Shown here: piece by piece, positions 26,861 through 42,375 of the stretch
Layout: every line of letters starts with the position of its first letter
Position numbering within the stretch: position 1 is the first letter of the stretch
NCBI GenBank assembly: GCA_018027755.1
Contig: GCA_018027755.1_4098.1
From: a phage
Length of the DNA stretch: 64,000 bases
Reading direction: 5' to 3' (one strand)
Program-made: the position numbers and the translations under genes
The notes under the pieces: generated by a model
The model's input: the letters and a program-made list of their open reading frames with translations, nothing else
What the model was told of the DNA's origin: nothing
Databases searched by the model: none

Positions 26861-29008
26861 ATGCTAAACATTACACGTATATCTATGAGGAACTTCTTTT
26901 CATTTGGTAATGCACCACAATCAATTGATTTGAATGGTTCCGACATTTCATTAGTACTGGGTCAAAATAATGATGCAGTTATTGAAGGTGGTGACAGTAC
27001 CGGACGTCGAAATGGTGTAGGGAAAAGTGCTATTATTCAAGGATTAGTTTTTGGATTATTTGGTAAAAGTATTGGTAATGATATTAAAATTCCGAACCTA
27101 GTCAATAAAACTAATGGCAAAAATTGTGAAGTAGTTGTAGAGTTTGAAAAAGATGGTGTACAATATCTGGTTGAACGTGGGAGAAGTCCCACGTATTTCA
27201 ATTTTGTTACTTTAGGGAAAGATAATAAAATTGAAGATGAATCAAGGGGAGAAAAGAAAGACACACAAGAAGATTTGAATGAAATTCTTGGTATATCTCA
27301 ATTATTATTTGAACATATTGTAGTACTGAATGCTAACGTTGAACCTTTCTTAGCTTTATCCACACAAAAACAACGTGATATGATAGAAGAACTTCTTGGA
27401 ATAACACAGTTGACGGAAAAAGCTGAAATGCTAAAGGAGATGTATAAGGATACTAAACGTTTAGCCGAACAAGAAAAGTTCAAAAATGAAACTGTAGCTG
27501 CAAGTAATGAACGTATTCAAAAAAGTATTGAGACACTACAAGAACAGGCAAACCAGTTTGAAATTGATAAAAATAATAGAGTATCTAAGTTAAATGAAGA
27601 GTTGAATATATATAAAACTTTAGACTTTAATGACCTCTATGAAGCTGCTGATATAAAAGAGAAAGCTCTTATTCATAACGCAAAGCGTGGGGAAATCGAA
27701 CGCCGTGTACAAGAGTTGGCTTTAAAATTTGATGCATATGACCGTGAACTTGAAAGATCTAAAAGAGAATTAAATCTAAGCATTGATAAGCTAAAAACTA
27801 TTGATATTAGTGCAGAATTGGAAAATCATAATGAGTTGGAGATATGGAAACAGTTAGAGGGTATTCTAAAAGAGAATAATAACCAAAAACGTTTCAAAGA
27901 ACAAAAACTAAACTCACTAAAAATAGCTTTAAAAGGATATGAATGTTCAATTAATGCTGAAATTGACAAATTATCAACAGTTGAAAACAGCAAATGTCCA
28001 CTTTGTATGTCTGAATTAGAACATAACGAACATACTTCTTCAATTAAAGACAAAATCCAAAGTACTATTAATGATCTTCAAGCTAAAATTGATAGTTCTT
28101 CTTCTGAAATTGAAACATTACTTCAAGAAATTGATAGTATTGAGATTTTTGATATGCCACCTAAGCCTGTGACATATTATAATACACTTTCAGAAGCACA
28201 AATGCATGAACATAAGCTTCAAGAATTGGTCAGAAAGAGTGAAGAAGAACAAATAAACATCTATGCAAATGAACTTATGTCATCATATGATGAACTTAAC
28301 TCATATGAACTAATGGAAGTTCCAGATACATTAAACAAATATGAAGTTAAAGAGTTAGAAATGACTGTAAATTCATTATCACAGCAATTAGATCGTGAAT
28401 TGAAGACTACTAACACATTTATTAGCCAAATTAATACCCTGAAGACTGATTCTTTAGTACCAATCGATTATAGCGACTATAATAATCTTGATAAAATGTC
28501 AAATCACCAAGATTTCTTGGTTAAATTACTTTTAAACAAGGATTCTTATGTCCGTAAACGTATTATTGAGCAAAATATCTCATATTTGAATACACGACTT
28601 CAGTACTATATCGATATGTGCGGTTCTGAGCATAATGTTGTGTTTTTGAATGATTTGAGTGTTGAAATTGAGAAGAGTGGACAGTACTTTGACTATAAAC
28701 AGCTTAGTAGAGGTGAGCGTACAAGGGTAAACATCGCATTATCTTGTGCTTTCCGTGATACATATGAGTCATTATACCAAAGTATTAATATTCTTATCAT
28801 TGATGAGATGATTGACCAAGGTCTTGACTCGAGTGGTGTTCTACGTGTGTGGTCTATCTTCCAAGATATGGCTGCTGTACGTGGTAAGAACGTTTATGCT
28901 ATTTCCCACAGAGAAGAGTTACTATCTAAGACTGAAAAAATCCTCAAAGTTGTTAAAGAGGACGGTTTCAGTACTGTTGAATATGCAACCCTTGACGATG
29001 TTTTCTAA
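26861..29008 (+). CDS. recombination ATPase subunit gp46-like (Rad50/SbcC)
   Basis: N-terminal P-loop GVGKSAI, long coiled coil with CPLC zinc hook, C-terminal signature/Walker B (LSRGERTR, ILIIDE). Confidence 0.85.
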   Translation: MLNITRISMRNFFSFGNAPQSIDLNGSDISLVLGQNNDAVIEGGDSTGRRNGVGKSAIIQGLVFGLFGKSIGNDIKIPNLVNKTNGKNCEVVVEFEKDGVQYLVERGRSPTYFNFVTLGKDNKIEDESRGEKKDTQEDLNEILGISQLLFEHIVVLNANVEPFLALSTQKQRDMIEELLGITQLTEKAEMLKEMYKDTKRLAEQEKFKNETVAASNERIQKSIETLQEQANQFEIDKNNRVSKLNEELNIYKTLDFNDLYEAADIKEKALIHNAKRGEIERRVQELALKFDAYDRELERSKRELNLSIDKLKTIDISAELENHNELEIWKQLEGILKENNNQKRFKEQKLNSLKIALKGYECSINAEIDKLSTVENSKCPLCMSELEHNEHTSSIKDKIQSTINDLQAKIDSSSSEIETLLQEIDSIEIFDMPPKPVTYYNTLSEAQMHEHKLQELVRKSEEEQINIYANELMSSYDELNSYELMEVPDTLNKYEVKELEMTVNSLSQQLDRELKTTNTFISQINTLKTDSLVPIDYSDYNNLDKMSNHQDFLVKLLLNKDSYVRKRIIEQNISYLNTRLQYYIDMCGSEHNVVFLNDLSVEIEKSGQYFDYKQLSRGERTRVNIALSCAFRDTYESLYQSINILIIDEMIDQGLDSSGVLRVWSIFQDMAAVRGKNVYAISHREELLSKTEKILKVVKEDGFSTVEYATLDDVF

Positions 29009-29018
29009 TTAAAGATAA

Positions 29019-29042
29019 AGGGAGCCTTAGCTCCCTTTTTTT
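29019..29042. terminator. intrinsic terminator after gp46-like gene, overlapping the 3' end of the convergent gene
   Basis: agggagc-ctta-gctccct hairpin followed by T7 run. Confidence 0.55.
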
Positions 29043-29518
29043 ATATCAACCATATTTAATTTACCGTCCTTAATCAGCTTTCTAGCTTGCTTTACACGAG
29101 CAGTAGTGTTACTACCAGGGACAACTCCTAACCCTTCCAGAATCGCGTTTTGCTGTGTTGCTGGAAGCCTTTTAAACTTATTAACATCCACAGTTAGTGC
29201 TGTGTGATGTATGACTTGCTCTTCAGGTGGAATGTTATTGTTCTTTTCAAGATAATCTGCCAGATTTCTTAGTACTTCATGAAGAGGTTTATCAGTTAAA
29301 TGGCCCAGACAGCGTTTAAATGAATTTGCGACCCTTCCTTCCCATCCATTCACCTCATTTTGAAGAACCTGTCTACAATGTTGATTTCCACCATGATAGT
29401 GGTCAAGTACTGGTTTAGTTATTTTTATTCCTATAATGGGGTCAATACCATTTTGTTTTTTTAGTAGTTCTTTTCTGTAAGCTGCTGCTTCATTGGGATT
29501 TTTCAATCTCTTTTTCAT
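29027..29518 (-). CDS. endonuclease VII-like (HNH/beta-beta-alpha-Me) junction nuclease, putative
   Basis: 163 aa; D39-H40-x-H42 (LDHYHGG) positionally matches the T4 endo VII D40/H41/H43 active site; only two Cys so zinc site incomplete. Confidence 0.4.
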   Translation of the reverse strand: MKKRLKNPNEAAAYRKELLKKQNGIDPIIGIKITKPVLDHYHGGNQHCRQVLQNEVNGWEGRVANSFKRCLGHLTDKPLHEVLRNLADYLEKNNNIPPEEQVIHHTALTVDVNKFKRLPATQQNAILEGLGVVPGSNTTARVKQARKLIKDGKLNMVDIKKGS

Positions 29519-29563
29519 AGCGTTTTGTCCTGTTTCTGTAAATAATGTATATTAAAAAGTTTT

Positions 29564-30115
29564 GTGAGGTACACAAGAATAGCTAAAATTACACAACAAC
29601 AATTCATAGATAAATCAATGAATATTCATGGTAGTATTTACACATACAATAAAACAATATATGTCAATGCACACCATCCAATAACTGTTACGTGTAACAT
29701 TCACGGTGACTTCACAGTAGTTCCTAATAAACACATTTCTGCAAAACAAGGGTGTCCAGTTTGTTCAGACCAAGAACTAAAATCAAAACCTGTTATTGAA
29801 ATTCAGAATTTTTTAAAAACGTGTGATATAATGTTTGAAATGGAAAAGAAATTTGATAGTTGTAAAAACATCAATCATTTACCATTTGATTTTTATATTC
29901 CTGAACTTAATCTACTAATAGAATATGATGGTATCCAACACTTCAAACCAATAGAATACTTCGGTGGAGAAGAAGGTTTAGCTGAACAACAACGAAATGA
30001 TGAAATTAAGAATAAGTATTGTTATGATAATAATATTACTTTACTTAGAATAAAGTATTCAGATGACCACATTAAAATTATAAAAGACTTCATATCAAAA
30101 AATATAAATTATTGA
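29564..30115 (+). CDS. homing-endonuclease-like protein: zinc-ribbon module fused to a PD-(D/E)xK (Vsr/restriction-endonuclease-like) domain
   Basis: N-terminal module YVNAHHPITVTCNIHGDF...GCPVC matches repeats of the 431-aa protein at 40565; C-terminal FDFYIP-x5-LLIEYDGIQH motif; track start is GTG 29564, ATG at 29618 is more likely. Confidence 0.55.
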   Translation: MRYTRIAKITQQQFIDKSMNIHGSIYTYNKTIYVNAHHPITVTCNIHGDFTVVPNKHISAKQGCPVCSDQELKSKPVIEIQNFLKTCDIMFEMEKKFDSCKNINHLPFDFYIPELNLLIEYDGIQHFKPIEYFGGEEGLAEQQRNDEIKNKYCYDNNITLLRIKYSDDHIKIIKDFISKNINY

Positions 30116-30127
30116 ATAGTTTTTATG

Positions 30128-30160
30128 AACCAAGTAATGTTTTGTTACTTGGTTTTTTTA
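30128..30160 (+). terminator. intrinsic terminator after endonuclease gene
   Basis: aaccaagtaa/ttacttggtt 10-bp stem followed by T7. Confidence 0.55.
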
Positions 30161-30203
30161 TACTTCAAAAATGTACTAAGTACTTTTTTATTTTTTTATG
30201 ATA

Positions 30204-30236
30204 TTAGTGGGAAGATTTTAAAAATAGTGCTATAAT
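30204..30236 (+). promoter_or_regulatory. sigma70-like promoter with extended -10 (TGcTATAAT)
   Basis: TATAAT 30231-30236 with TG at 30228-30229; weak -35; gtgctataat motif also at 52096 and 57403. Confidence 0.4.
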
Positions 30237-30243
30237 GTTTGTT

Positions 30244-30697
30244 GTAGTAATGACAATCCTGTTGAATGCAGAAATGCATATAAATTAGAACCTGATCCTA
30301 TCGAAAATGTAGATGGCAGATGAGCAGTTCAACAGTGCGATGAGCAAAAGAAACCCGTTAGATGTGGGCATAGTTTGAACCCCTCACGGCAATGCGGCTC
30401 AATAAAGAACTCCGATAAGCATACAGAGAGTTCCTAGATAGACATATAAGGATCGCACCTTACCAGATTTGCTAAGGGAGTTTATTAAGTGATTTTAATA
30501 AACAGCCTGAAGTTTGATTGTATAGACTTTCAGGTGAGTGTCAGGATGATTAAGACTGACGACCGTTGCACATGACTGCGATAGAGAGAAACAGAGCAAC
30601 CCGCTTTCGTTCTTAATATATTTTTAAGAAATTCGCAATACAATAAATGCTGAAACCATCAGCGTCAAGAAATAGAGACTTCATTGTCTCTTTTTTA
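30244..30697 (+). ncRNA. candidate structured non-coding RNA (~450 nt), class unknown
   Basis: no ORF above 60 aa on either strand; bounded by promoter (30231-30236) and intrinsic terminator (30674-30696); GC-enriched relative to flanks; several local inverted repeats (30506-30534, 30649-30663). Confidence 0.3.
30674..30697 (+). terminator. intrinsic terminator closing the candidate ncRNA unit
   Basis: agagac-ttcatt-gtctct hairpin followed by T6. Confidence 0.5.
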
Positions 30698-30912
30698 TTG
30701 TCTTCATTCCCCTGCGGGGGGATGAAAATGTCCTCAACAAATCCCGTCAAGTATTAAATCTTTTAAAGTTCTTTATAATTAATTTAATTAAATGAATATG
30801 AGTTACGTAGTAACGAATATTCTTCAGCTAACGAATGAAATGAGTTAGATGAATCCAATAATATTAAAATTAATCCTTTCATAATTCAATTCAAATAATT
30901 CTGTAGTTTAAA

Positions 30913-30943
30913 ACCAAAAAAAAACCAGCAACAATGTGCTGGC
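30913..30943 (-). terminator. intrinsic terminator after minus-strand 69-aa gene
   Basis: ccagca-acaatg-tgctgg hairpin with A9 run on + strand (T-run on minus). Confidence 0.5.
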
Positions 30944-30953
30944 TATATGAAAA

Positions 30954-31163
30954 TTAGTGCTTCTCGTTTTGTTTTTTAATTTTTTTATTAAAAGACTTAA
31001 CTAATAAGTCTCTATCTATTAATGGCATATTAAGGAGTGTTCCATAGTCAATGTTATCCATATATACAGAACATTCCATTAGTGCATTTTTGATTTCTGA
31101 CTTATTCAGTTCTATCTCCTTCAGTACTTCTTGTATTTCTTCAGGAGATGACTGGAGAAGCAT
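30954..31163 (-). CDS. hypothetical protein (69 aa)
   Basis: ORF whose start overlaps the stop of the upstream 278-aa gene; terminator immediately downstream. Confidence 0.45.
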   Translation of the reverse strand: MLLQSSPEEIQEVLKEIELNKSEIKNALMECSVYMDNIDYGTLLNMPLIDRDLLVKSFNKKIKKQNEKH

Positions 31164-31999
31164 TACTCGAAAAAATGACTAGGATCATATTTTAGTCCAT
31201 CAATTTCCCATTGATGATTACATCCATCACATTCTACTTCCATACTATGAGATACACCAATTTCAAGTACTTCATCCATTTTTTCACGAATTAGTTTAAG
31301 TACTCCCTTCGATTGTTGTCCAAGCCATTCATTAATAAATTCTTTTTCAACTACTTCATCACCATCTGGTGTTATAATTTTTGCAATAACTCCACCAATC
31401 ATATCGAAGTTAAGTTGAGCCATGTTTTCAAATACTTCAGAAAATATTTTTACTTTTTCATCTTTATCAATATCAGCAGTTTCAAGAAACTTAGTCTTCT
31501 GCTGCTCACTGAACATGCGTTCAGCAAACGATGAATATTCTTTCCATGTCAGTGGTCTAAATTCTAAACGGAGTCCATTATCTAAATCAATTGATGGGAT
31601 TTCTTCAAATGCTTGTGCAGTTTCAAGAAGATATGATAGATTACGTTCAAATCGACCTTCTTTTTCACATTCAGGACATACAACGTTAATATCATATGTT
31701 TCTTCTTTAGAAGCAACTTTAATAGCAATAAGAAGCATTTCAACGTCATTTACATACAACTCATCAGCGTCAATTACATTAGGAACACAGTTTTCAATAA
31801 CACGGGATACTGCATCTCCGTTTAGTAACATATCGGGGGTATTAAGTGTCATTTCATCACGTGCACTACGTGCACAAACTCCACATTTGACACCTTTTGG
31901 ACCTAGAACTCCTTCTTTATAAGGAATAACGCCGTTTGTAACTAACTTAGTACTGATCTCTTCAATTTTAGTGTACTTAGCAAGTGGATTCATAGCCAT
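31163..31999 (-). CDS. hypothetical zinc-binding protein (three CxxC motifs)
   Basis: 278 aa with CGVC, CPEC, CDGC motifs; acidic; function not recognized. Confidence 0.5.
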   Translation of the reverse strand: MAMNPLAKYTKIEEISTKLVTNGVIPYKEGVLGPKGVKCGVCARSARDEMTLNTPDMLLNGDAVSRVIENCVPNVIDADELYVNDVEMLLIAIKVASKEETYDINVVCPECEKEGRFERNLSYLLETAQAFEEIPSIDLDNGLRLEFRPLTWKEYSSFAERMFSEQQKTKFLETADIDKDEKVKIFSEVFENMAQLNFDMIGGVIAKIITPDGDEVVEKEFINEWLGQQSKGVLKLIREKMDEVLEIGVSHSMEVECDGCNHQWEIDGLKYDPSHFFE

Positions 32000-32129
32000 T
32001 TTATTAAATCTCCATGTAATAAATGTGTTTTAGTATTTATAAGACTAAAAAAGATTAAATTAAACTAATTTTTATATTCTCTATAGTTTCATAAATATTT
32101 CTATAATACATCTATTAAAAGGGAATGTT

Positions 32130-39240: not shown

Positions 39241-40416
39241 ATGTCACAACTACTAAATGAATCCAAATGGGTAGCAGTAAAAGAGAAACTAGTTGAAGGT
39301 CTACAGGGTACTCGTAAGTCTGTAATGGAAACTGTTCTTGATAACCATCGTAAAGTTATGCTAACTGAATCCGCAACTTCTGGTGCAACTACCGCTGGTA
39401 ACATCGCTACTCTAAACAAAGTGATTCTACCAATTATGCGTCGTGTAATGCCAACCGTTATTGCTAACGAAATCATCGGTGTTCAACCTATGACTGGTCC
39501 AGTTGGTCAGATCCACACCCTACGTGTACAATATGCTGATAACGCACCTGGTGTAATCGCTGGTGAAGAAATGCTTTCTCCATACAAAATCGCTAAATCT
39601 TACTCTGGTGATCTAAATGCGGATAATAGCAACCCACAAGCTGCTCCTACTAGCCAACTAGAAGGTACTATGGGTCGTCGCGTTAACATCCGTATTCTAC
39701 GTGAAACTGTTGAAGCGAAATCTCGTCGTCTATCTGCACGTTGGACTGTTGAATCTGCACAAGATGCTCAATCCCAACATGGTGTTGACGTTGAAGCAGA
39801 ACTAATGGCTGCAATCGCTCAAGAAGTTACTGTAGAAATCGACCAAGAGCTACTAAGCCGTCTACGTGCACTACCTGGTGCTGCTGCTGTAACTTATGAC
39901 CAATCTAAAGTTACTGGTGTTGCAACCTTCGTTGGTGATGAGCACGCTGCTCTAGCTACTCTAATTAACCGTCAAGCAAACGAAGTTGCTCGTCGTACTA
40001 AGCGTGGTGCTGCAAACTGGGCTGTTGTTTCCCCAACTGCACTAACCATTCTACAATCTGCTACTACTTCTAGCTTTGCACGTACCACTGAAGGTACTTT
40101 TGAAGCACCAACTAACGTTAAGTTTGTAGGTACTCTAAACAGCACTATGCGTATTTTCGTTGATACCTATGCTAGTGATGCAGAAGATATTCTAATTGGT
40201 TATAAAGGTAATGCGGAAACTGATGCTGGTGTATTCTATTGCCCATACATCCCACTAATGGCTTCTGGTACTGTAATGGACCCTAACACTGGTGAACTCG
40301 TGACCACATTTTTAACACGCTATGGCTACGTTCAGCTAACCGACAGTACTTCATCTCTTGGTAACGCTGCTGACTACTACAGCAAAATCGCTATCAAAAA
40401 CGTTACTTTCATGTAA
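39241..40416 (+). CDS. major capsid protein, gp23-like
   Basis: VIANEIIGVQPMTGPVGQIHTLRV, VEAKSRRLSARW, ILIGYKGNAETDAGVFYCPY match T4 gp23 LIAFDICGVQPMNSPTGQVFALRA, IEAKSRQLKAAY, GYKGPNEMDAGIYYAPY. Confidence 0.9.
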   Translation: MSQLLNESKWVAVKEKLVEGLQGTRKSVMETVLDNHRKVMLTESATSGATTAGNIATLNKVILPIMRRVMPTVIANEIIGVQPMTGPVGQIHTLRVQYADNAPGVIAGEEMLSPYKIAKSYSGDLNADNSNPQAAPTSQLEGTMGRRVNIRILRETVEAKSRRLSARWTVESAQDAQSQHGVDVEAELMAAIAQEVTVEIDQELLSRLRALPGAAAVTYDQSKVTGVATFVGDEHAALATLINRQANEVARRTKRGAANWAVVSPTALTILQSATTSSFARTTEGTFEAPTNVKFVGTLNSTMRIFVDTYASDAEDILIGYKGNAETDAGVFYCPYIPLMASGTVMDPNTGELVTTFLTRYGYVQLTDSTSSLGNAADYYSKIAIKNVTFM

Positions 40417-40490: not shown

Positions 40491-40502
40491 TTAAAAAAAT
40501 GC

Positions 40503-40531
40503 TTGACAGAATATTTTTAATTATATATAAT
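40503..40531 (+). promoter_or_regulatory. consensus sigma70 promoter (TTGACA-17 nt-TATAAT)
   Basis: TTGACA 40503-40508, 17-nt spacer, TATAAT 40526-40531, directly upstream of homing-endonuclease-like ORF. Confidence 0.55.
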
Positions 40532-40564
40532 TATCAAATCGAAACCAAGTTGAGTAAATTGAAA

Positions 40565-41653
40565 ATGTTAATTGAAAATTTCAAAAAGAAAATGAATGAA
40601 AAATATGGAATGTATGGTGAGTTTGATTTTAATTCGATGATTTTTAAATCTAGCAAAACTACCTTGAAATGTAACAAATGTGGTATTGAAAATACAAAGT
40701 CTGCAATTCGTCATATCTCATGTACTTGCTCTAACTGTTATAGTAACATGTCCCAGCGTTCCAATAATGATGATTTCATTTTAAAAGTTGAAAAGAAATT
40801 CGGGACTGAAAAATTTAAATTTGATAAATTGGTTTATGTTAATGCAAAAACTCCAGTTACAATATTCTGCACTAAACATAATGGTTATTTTCACATAACA
40901 CCAAATAAGTTATTAACTGGTGCTGGATGTAACGTTTGTAATATTAATGTAGTGCATACGAATAATGAATTTATAAAAATTGTTAAACGTAATTATGGTG
41001 ATAAATTTAGTTTCCAAAAAACCAACTATATTAACAGAACAACAAAAGTCACAGTGCATTGCAATGAAGGAAATCATGATTGGGAAGTTGATCCAAAAAC
41101 ATTGATACTTGGGAAGTCAGGATGTGGTATATGTTCAGGTAAAGGTGGGAGAACAACCGAGCAATTTATTGCAGAAGCTGTAAAAGTTCATAACAATAAT
41201 TATGATTACTCATCTGTTATGTATGAGCATAGTGAAAAAATGGTCGAGATAAAATGCAACAATTGTAAAAATATTTTTCATCAGCAACCTAAAGCACATT
41301 TGACAGGTCGTGGTTGTCCAAAATGCGGTAAGTATGGTTATCAGACTTCCAAGCCTGGATATTTTTATGTACAGAAACTAACTAATAAAGATAAAACCGT
41401 TTATAAATATGGAATCACTGGTGATATGAAACGTAGAGTGAACGAACAGAGTCGTGATTCTGAATTCGTCCATGAAGTACTAGTAGAACGTTTCTTCGAA
41501 GATGGTAATAAACCCCTCTTACTGGAAAAGTTTATCAAGCAGTACATTGAAAGTGGAGTAGTAAGTACTGAAGAGTTGCCGTCAGGATTTACTGAAACGT
41601 TTGATGAAAAGTATCTAAAATCTGTACTGGAAATTGTAAATACCTTTAAGTAA
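40565..41653 (+). CDS. free-standing homing-endonuclease-like protein: four tandem zinc-ribbon modules plus C-terminal GIY-YIG superfamily (T5orf172-like) domain
   Basis: track ORF 40358..41653 overlaps capsid gene and terminator, so start placed at ATG 40565; repeated ~40-aa Cys modules ending G(C)xxC; C-terminal GYFYVQKL-x9-YKYGITGDMKRR resembles GIY...YIG...R. Confidence 0.55.
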   Translation: MLIENFKKKMNEKYGMYGEFDFNSMIFKSSKTTLKCNKCGIENTKSAIRHISCTCSNCYSNMSQRSNNDDFILKVEKKFGTEKFKFDKLVYVNAKTPVTIFCTKHNGYFHITPNKLLTGAGCNVCNINVVHTNNEFIKIVKRNYGDKFSFQKTNYINRTTKVTVHCNEGNHDWEVDPKTLILGKSGCGICSGKGGRTTEQFIAEAVKVHNNNYDYSSVMYEHSEKMVEIKCNNCKNIFHQQPKAHLTGRGCPKCGKYGYQTSKPGYFYVQKLTNKDKTVYKYGITGDMKRRVNEQSRDSEFVHEVLVERFFEDGNKPLLLEKFIKQYIESGVVSTEELPSGFTETFDEKYLKSVLEIVNTFK

Positions 41654-41667
41654 ACAATCTAAAGGAG

Positions 41668-42027
41668 TTGACACGGATGTTAACTGTATACAAATTTAAA
41701 AGAGAAGAGTACTTAAAGAGCCAGTACTCAAATATAGAAATAAATGTTCCTTATGGTACGTTAGTTGGATACGATGAAGCCACTGAAACATTGTATTATA
41801 ATGATGATAGATTAGATTATAGTTTAGATTCTTTCATAGAAGATATACTTAATACACATACTGAAGATATGTTGTATGAAGAATACATCGATCATTATAG
41901 AGAACGTATGTCGCTGCTGCATTCTGATGCTCCTGTGCTAAACATTGCACAAGAACCCTCGGAATTTCAGCCACATAATCCTTTTCAACGTTTAATTGAT
42001 ATTGGTTTAAAATTCACTATTAATTGA
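41668..42027 (+). CDS. hypothetical protein (119 aa)
   Basis: ORF with GGAG RBS downstream of homing endonuclease gene. Confidence 0.45.
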   Translation: MTRMLTVYKFKREEYLKSQYSNIEINVPYGTLVGYDEATETLYYNDDRLDYSLDSFIEDILNTHTEDMLYEEYIDHYRERMSLLHSDAPVLNIAQEPSEFQPHNPFQRLIDIGLKFTIN

Positions 42028-42066
42028 TAGATAAATATCTCCATATTAATGATGGAGATTGAATCT

Positions 42067-42375
42067 ATGTCACAGATATGTTATGTTATAATAAACTCTG
42101 CATGGCCTGACTATGTTAAGATTGGTTTCACTTCTAAATCTGAAATGACAGAGCGTTTGAGAACGTATCAGACAGCTACCCCGTTTCGTGATTTTGAAGT
42201 TTATCATGAAGTTCACTTTGAAGACGCACGTTTAGCTGAAAAAGAGATACATAAAAGGCTTAAACAAATGAATGCAACTAGACAACCAAACACGGAGTGG
42301 TTTAAAATGTCTAAAAAGATAGCAGCAAACATCATTGATTCTGTGTGGGATGATATGGATAACGACTTGCTATAG
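42067..42375 (+). CDS. small GIY-YIG superfamily (T5orf172-like) domain protein
   Basis: track ORF starts 42049; CYVIINS-x7-VKIGFT...R...EWF pattern; no DNA-binding extension. Confidence 0.45.
   Translation: MSQICYVIINSAWPDYVKIGFTSKSEMTERLRTYQTATPFRDFEVYHEVHFEDARLAEKEIHKRLKQMNATRQPNTEWFKMSKKIAANIIDSVWDDMDNDLL

Follow-up and report, generated by a model that had tools for sequence, protein, structure and literature searches.

The open reading frame at positions 29564..30115 (+ strand) of the 64,000-nt stretch of DNA analyzed here (the window) encodes one zinc-finger module followed by a Vsr-like (EDxHD-type) nuclease domain. It is very likely that this ORF belongs to the zinc-module/Vsr-like homing endonuclease family and is an element of that kind. 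The best overall explanation, which we consider probable, is that this is a free-standing homing endonuclease gene and that the window carries a degenerate copy of it. The reading frame was confirmed as it had been proposed (183 aa from a GTG codon), and the peptides quoted in the original prediction are present; IYVNAHHPITVTCNIHGDFTVVPNKHISAKQGCPVCS corresponds to residues 32–68 and FDFYIP...LLIEYDGIQH to residues 108–126. The phage belongs to the Asteriusvirus (PBECO4/121Q) type of jumbo coliphages. Window positions 28000–32000 are 99.8% identical to Escherichia phage EC22.5-2 and 96.6–97% identical to PBECO4, 121Q, and ~15 relatives. In the "E. coli" assembly GCA_902500055.1, the same sequence lies on a contig of 353,697 bp. 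The neighbors of the gene encode a gp46-like recombination nuclease subunit (26861..29008), an endonuclease VII (29027..29518, − strand; phrog_423, 4e-32), and a baseplate hub protein. Against PHROG, the protein matched phrog_559 (1e-50) and phrog_9084, annotated "homing endonuclease" (4e-30).

The nuclease domain occupies 29768..30112 (+; residues 69–183). A PD-(D/E)xK/Vsr-like fold had been predicted for the C terminus and this reading stands, but the domain begins at about residue 70 and not at residue 100. Fold comparison was needed because sequence methods gave sub-threshold matches only. The Pfam models DUF2726, DUF559, DUF5889, PvuRts1I-like_N, and TnsA-like all scored below their curated cutoffs on the nuclease domain. 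HMMER searches of PDB sequences found nothing with the full-length family profile; with the nuclease-only profile they gave sub-threshold matches to AbaSI (0.034) and the DUF559 protein 3hrl (1.5) and did not recover 3r3p. NCBIfam has no model for this protein or for the second family member described below. A single-sequence search of PDB sequences returned chance matches to RING fingers only and was discarded. An AlphaFold2 (AF2) model of the protein built with 32 sequences has a pLDDT of 90.8, and a Foldseek search returned 1vsr as the top match. Structure prediction had been put forward as a check, and the model together with fold comparison identifies the C-terminal domain as a Vsr-like variant of the PD-(D/E)xK fold. 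In the fold comparison, the best structural match was the homing enzyme I-Bth0305I rather than Vsr.

The EDxHD family was established by Taylor et al. (2011; PMC3239194) on the basis of I-Bth0305I (sequence from Bacillus phage 0305phi8-36, structure PDB 3R3P). This enzyme combines a Vsr-like C-terminal nuclease with NUMOD/helix-turn-helix repeats and acts as a dimer with a footprint of ~60 nt (PMC3239194). The conserved nuclease residues on the + strand are D109 (29888–29890), E120 (29921–29923), H126 (29939–29941), D146 (29999–30001), and K149. D109, E120, G123, Q125, H126, and D146 are invariant in the family, as is D122, which is at the x position of EDxHD. When the family profile was aligned to the single I-Bth0305I sequence with hhalign (E 1e-4, with a probability of only 58%), D109 paired with D196, E120 with E206, D122 with N208, and D146 with D222. 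In our reading, which allows a one-residue indel in the alignment, H126 corresponds to H213. The upstream Glu (family consensus S-K-G-E) is replaced by Val77 in the window protein and is absent in the close three-module clade too. We take the first E of EDxHD to be E170 of I-Bth0305I, a reading of PMC3239194, which does not state it residue by residue. With Val77 in place of this Glu, catalysis in the clade may differ. The two proteins are 18% identical. They also differ in the loop between the His and the last Asp, which is ~11 residues longer in the 29564 protein (F-G-G segment), and in their DNA-reading regions and setting, I-Bth0305I being intron-encoded with NUMOD/helix-turn-helix repeats in place of zinc modules.

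The N-terminal part of the protein is a CapR/DUF723/DUF4379-type zinc module (29591..29767, +; residues 10–68) with C44, H47, C64, and C67 as ligands, all four of which are invariant in an alignment of 32 relatives. The original prediction correctly related this region to the repeats of a second protein, encoded at 40565, but gave its length as ~40 aa. The module is ~60 aa long and opens with a helix (residues 11–25) that the quoted peptide omits. Pfam DUF723 matched the window protein at E 9.7e-4 (19.5 bits versus a cutoff of 20.9); among the 32 relatives, 31 matched DUF4379, 28 matched DUF723, and 10 matched CapR. A module HMM, built from relatives carrying the Vsr-type nuclease, matched the window protein at 7e-21. 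In the AF2 model, the opening helix is followed by a hairpin (40–44/48–52) with C44-x2-H47 in its turn, and C64-x2-C67 lies at the N terminus of helix 65–72, which is a treble-clef arrangement. Pfam describes DUF4379 as a "probable treble clef" zinc finger. The earlier label "zinc ribbon" therefore seems imprecise; we prefer treble clef because the second Cys pair is at a helix N terminus and because of the DUF4379 match. The modules would be expected to bind DNA.

The second family member lies at 40565..41653 (+) and is a 362-aa protein with three good zinc modules, one degenerate module, and a C-terminal T5orf172/GIY-YIG domain (~41330–41650). One module type is thus joined to two unrelated nuclease folds. 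In BLASTP, the 29564 module matched three separate repeats of the 40358/40565 protein (E 2e-8, 2e-8, and 4e-7), and the three-module allele of EC22.5-2 matched the same protein at 3e-18. The module HMM detected three repeats in the 40358 ORF (i-E 1e-17, 7e-12, and 5e-9) and a degenerate fourth (i-E 41). A search with this HMM of the six-frame translation of the whole window gave no matches beyond those ORFs. Alignment of the modules across both proteins had been set as a test of their relationship, and the similarity is far beyond chance by both methods. The proposal that the shared module carries different nuclease folds was likewise borne out, Vsr-like PD-(D/E)xK at 29564 versus T5orf172/GIY-YIG at 40565. 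The wider idea of a modular endonuclease family was correct and had already been published (PMC10448857, PMC12350094). The 40565 protein matched phrog_681 (9e-73), and of 40 orthologues, 26 had T5orf172 matches and 24 had MUG113 matches. The corresponding AF2 model has a pLDDT of 89.4. The 107-aa C terminus returned one fragment when used as the query, and the full-length protein was used instead.

The longer ORF starts at TTG 40358, within the major capsid gene (39241..40416), and overlaps its end. Sequence inserted relative to PBECO4 starts only at 40495, so the real start is at or after ATG 40499, and ATG 40565 is likely. Among the 120 best-scoring homologues of the Vsr-type query, P0118 has the same zinc modules and a T5orf172-like tail (FYKIGIT...), which shows that members of the module family have exchanged nuclease domains. 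Window positions 42049–42375 (+), two genes beyond the T5orf172 endonuclease in the downstream direction, encode a 108-aa stand-alone T5orf172/MUG113 protein (Pfam E 4e-13) that has no DNA-binding module; it is conserved in PBECO4 and annotated there as "GIY-YIG nuclease family protein". A BLASTP comparison of the 40565 C terminus with this stand-alone ORF was not significant (E 0.56).

Both genes had been placed in separate accessory islands, and both are indeed indels relative to PBECO4. The 29564 gene sits in an inserted segment of 657 bp (29520..30176) that carries its own ribosome-binding site and terminator; in blastn comparisons, PBECO4 and the other gene-less relatives have an unrelated 58 bp in its place. 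When positions 28000–32000 were used as a 4-kb query, at least 15 Asteriusvirus-type records (H3–H17) covered only 84% of it, and only EC22.5-2 and ECO103 4-12-1 reached 100% cover among the matches listed. The gene is present at this locus in only 2 phage-collection records, and paralogues with 39–52% identity to its product occur elsewhere in related jumbo phages. Within the inserted segment, a 13-pair stem-loop with a downstream T run (30127..30162, +) resembles an intrinsic terminator. The scan for terminator-like stem-loops around the gene gave 1 site versus 0.4 expected in shuffled sequence. Sigma-70-like promoter matches around the gene were no more frequent than in shuffles, so we claim no promoter for it. 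The T5orf172 endonuclease lies in a segment of 1182 bp (40495..41676) directly after the major capsid gene, where PBECO4 has 40 bp. In EC22.5-2 (L006, 1693–2307), the DNA-binding half corresponding to window positions 40492–41286 is diverged and 180 bp (about one module) shorter. Identity is 96% in the T5orf172 half, which makes this a natural exchange of recognition regions among close relatives.

The flank of the 29564 insertion is also diverged. The first 318 nt of the endonuclease VII gene contain a tract (29201..29510, −) with ~27% differences from gene-less relatives; compared with PBECO4, it has 86 mismatches, which change 43 codons synonymously and 22 non-synonymously. Up to 29200, the window and PBECO4 differ at 0–1 positions per 100 nt, and the surrounding sequence is ~99.7% identical. 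To the right of the insert, the first 100 nt (30177–30276) contain 15 differences from PBECO4. The diverged endonuclease VII tract is common to the gene-carrying phage EC22.5-2. Co-conversion would be expected to leave such a pattern, and the tract resembles the product of co-conversion or exchange in linkage with the endonuclease gene; we infer that the target lies within the 5′ part of the endonuclease VII gene or close to it. Salmonella phage SD-series records were left out; their endonuclease VII gene is split into small ORFs, and they look error-prone. In SD-15_S21 (OR699188; L003 1528–2584) and its sister records, endonuclease VII and the downstream region appear as many "hypothetical proteins" of 30–55 aa. 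The SD-15_S21 sequence aligns at 99.7% identity over no more than 75% of the query, and the fragmentation probably reflects assembly or sequencing errors.

Comparison with EC22.5-2 revealed two lesions in the window allele that the original prediction had missed. The EC22.5-2 allele is intact and encodes 318 aa with three zinc modules (L001 2065..3036; 323/318 aa). The window allele is a 420-bp (140-codon) in-frame deletion of this three-module gene that leaves one module; the two alleles are otherwise ~99.8% identical. The deletion junction (29743..29751, +) falls in near-identical KQGCPVCSD-coding stretches of parental modules 1 and 3. Relative to L001, the last right-register mismatch is at 29742 and the first left-register mismatch is at 29752. 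Homologues of 311–318 aa (49–60% identity) share the three-module layout, which indicates that three modules are the ancestral state. The deletion allele is present in at least two assemblies.

The second lesion affects the start codon. At the ancestral start position (29579..29581, +), the window has ATA (Ile6 of the listed ORF), whereas EC22.5-2 and all full-length homologues have ATG; the single mismatch between the window and EC22.5-2 at this codon is G to A at 29581. The same ATA allele is found in GCA_902500055.1. The homologues P0001, P0004, P0019, P0021, P0023, P0081, and P0107 start at the codon equivalent to window position 29579, and all homologue N termini have the form M-[AKR]-K-x-T when aligned to it. 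A GAGG Shine-Dalgarno-like sequence (29566..29569, +) lies 9 nt before the ancestral start and is identical in EC22.5-2. The GTG at 29564 overlaps this GAGG ribosome-binding site. The ATG at 29618, earlier judged the more plausible start, is the one from which NCBI calls a 165-aa "hypothetical protein" (WP_210765948.1). That choice does not hold, since the ancestral ATG is at 29579, and 29618 has no ribosome-binding site; a start there would remove part of the module's first helix. Translation from ATA 29579 or from the upstream GTG is still conceivable.

Taken at face value, the window copy looks like a recent degenerate allele. The ATA start and the deletion suggest that it is probably poorly translated and that its target recognition is reduced or altered, and we lean toward the view that it is functionally crippled; it may nevertheless retain residual or altered activity. 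A different reading, possible but doubtful, is that the allele still encodes a working endonuclease that starts at ATA 29579 or GTG 29564, the deletion being a change of specificity and not decay. The remaining module and the nuclease domain's own contacts would then give a shorter or different target. This would fit the hybrid module, which is intact and modeled with a pLDDT above 90, the retention of all the conserved nuclease residues, and the ribosome-binding site that ATA 29579 keeps. Natural one-module relatives of 176–191 aa (P0161, P0182, and P0239) occur among the 150 best representatives of the family, so having a single module does not by itself imply inactivity. It has also been argued that inter-repeat deletions shift specificity (PMC10448857). 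Against a working allele, the two independent lesions have accumulated in a gene that otherwise barely differs from the intact one. ATA is a very poor initiator in bacteria, and GTG 29564 has no ribosome-binding site of its own.

The remaining alternatives assign the protein another role. Domestication of the gene for the phage's benefit, as an anti-competitor or anti-satellite nuclease or a DNA-binding regulator like CapR and Odn in ICP1/PLE, has precedent in that such modules and nucleases have been co-opted elsewhere (PMC10448857), and the gene adjoins recombination genes (gp46-like and endonuclease VII). We regard it as improbable: the gene is sporadic at this locus, being present in 2 records and missing from most relatives, its lesions resemble decay, and nothing here links it to a satellite or competitor. 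Slightly less probable again is re-purposing of the protein with a non-ATG start, for example as a nickase or a regulator near the recombination genes, a view prompted by two features: the first Glu (Val77) has been lost across the clade, and only one module remains. That the protein is a phage Vsr-type mismatch repair enzyme or an HNH endonuclease, as RefSeq and PHROG label its homologues, is very improbable, because the Pfam Vsr and HNH models do not match it at E up to 1, its fold is PD-(D/E)xK and not beta-beta-alpha-Me, its nearest structural relative is I-Bth0305I, and its N-terminal sequence-reading modules and insertion polymorphism fit a homing enzyme.

The HNH label is widespread. 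It is attached to phrog_559 and to homologues in the RefSeq records of GAP32, 121Q, FpV4, and phiL47; the term "homing endonuclease EDxHD" is used in only one record, that of Klebsiella phage Muenster. Given the PD-(D/E)xK fold and the lack of a Pfam HNH match at E up to 1, HNH appears to be an erroneous annotation that has been propagated. A homologue search with the 29564 protein returned more than 7,600 sequences, several of them named "very-short-patch-repair endonuclease" by JGI. In an exhaustive search with the nuclease domain, 24,826 representatives of 50%-identity clusters matched at E <= 1e-3 and 9,277 at E <= 1e-10. The nuclease domain is at or near the C terminus in the best 150 representatives. 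The module HMM finds 1–8 upstream copies in 106 of these and none in 44, some of which have different domains at the N terminus, for example C2H2 fingers or other Cys-rich repeats; module number is therefore variable in the wider family.

If the gene is a homing endonuclease gene, as we favor, its working form would act as follows. The zinc modules, arranged as beads on a string, would recognize a long DNA target in gene-less phage genomes, probably within the 5′ part of the endonuclease VII gene or adjacent to it. This target would be cut by the nuclease domain through Mg2+/His-dependent hydrolysis, the enzyme probably acting as a dimer like I-Bth0305I. In a mixed infection, repair from gene-carrying genomes would then copy in the gene together with flanking sequence. 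In the window lineage, recombination between the repeated CPVCSD-coding stretches has deleted 140 codons, and the ATG start has mutated to ATA.

Closely related architectures have been described. Homing endonucleases with 3–5 CapR/DUF4379/DUF723-like domains followed by an EDxHD/Vsr-like domain were reported recently (PMC12350094, Nucleic Acids Res 2025). Compared by architecture, these enzymes and the 29564 family both have ~60-aa zinc modules followed by a Vsr-like nuclease of ~100 aa, and the window protein has this layout with at least one module N-terminal to the nuclease. The published enzymes reside in phage group II and group I introns, whereas the 29564 gene is free-standing and intergenic and its window allele has one module, not the three to five in tandem of PMC12350094. 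That study noted thousands of unannotated relatives, which fits the number of representatives found here. T5orf172 homing endonucleases carry repeated CapR/DUF723/DUF4379 zinc fingers and show inter-repeat recombination, domain swaps, and sites at genetic-exchange boundaries (PMC10448857, 2023). The 40565 protein is a direct member of this group. As in our window, the T5orf172 zinc-finger enzymes adjoin essential genes and exchange boundaries. ICP1 gp174/gp174* (PMC10448857) has the same modules, the same beads-on-a-string design, and an in-frame inter-repeat deletion like that of the 29564 allele, but the gp174 group has a GIY-YIG nuclease in place of the Vsr-like one found at 29564. CapR of the Vibrio cholerae PLE satellites, a repressor of capsid genes, has a homologous zinc-finger module and, unlike the 29564 protein, contains no nuclease domain. 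E. coli Vsr (PDB 1VSR/1CW0) shares the nuclease fold and the Asp/His/Asp active-site pattern; unlike the 29564 protein, which has an N-terminal module, it is a stand-alone enzyme that nicks specifically at mismatches and has its own structural zinc site and intercalating Trp residues (PMC3239194).

The 29564 gene is an ordinary, probably decaying member of a described and very abundant family. Its architecture and modular domain swapping are published and extremely common, and we attach little discovery value to them. The annotation should be corrected from "hypothetical protein" or "HNH endonuclease" to a Vsr-like homing endonuclease gene with a mutated start. The three- and one-module alleles, being nearly identical elsewhere, are a natural pair for studying how module number sets specificity. 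The sharply bounded endonuclease VII tract is a textbook case of a nuclease gene at a genetic-exchange boundary.

Two further observations were made. Downstream of the gene, window positions 30116–30953 (~840 nt) contain no ORF longer than 45 aa, an unusually long non-coding stretch for a phage; an Rfam scan of 29000–31200 found no family near any gathering score. It is conserved, and likewise lacks annotation, in PBECO4. In Bacillus phage 0305phi8-36, gp9 and gp10 (L008 942–2225) are annotated "HNH endonuclease; may contain zinc fingers" and "Cys-rich domain protein", and they may be further zinc-module proteins of the 29564 kind.
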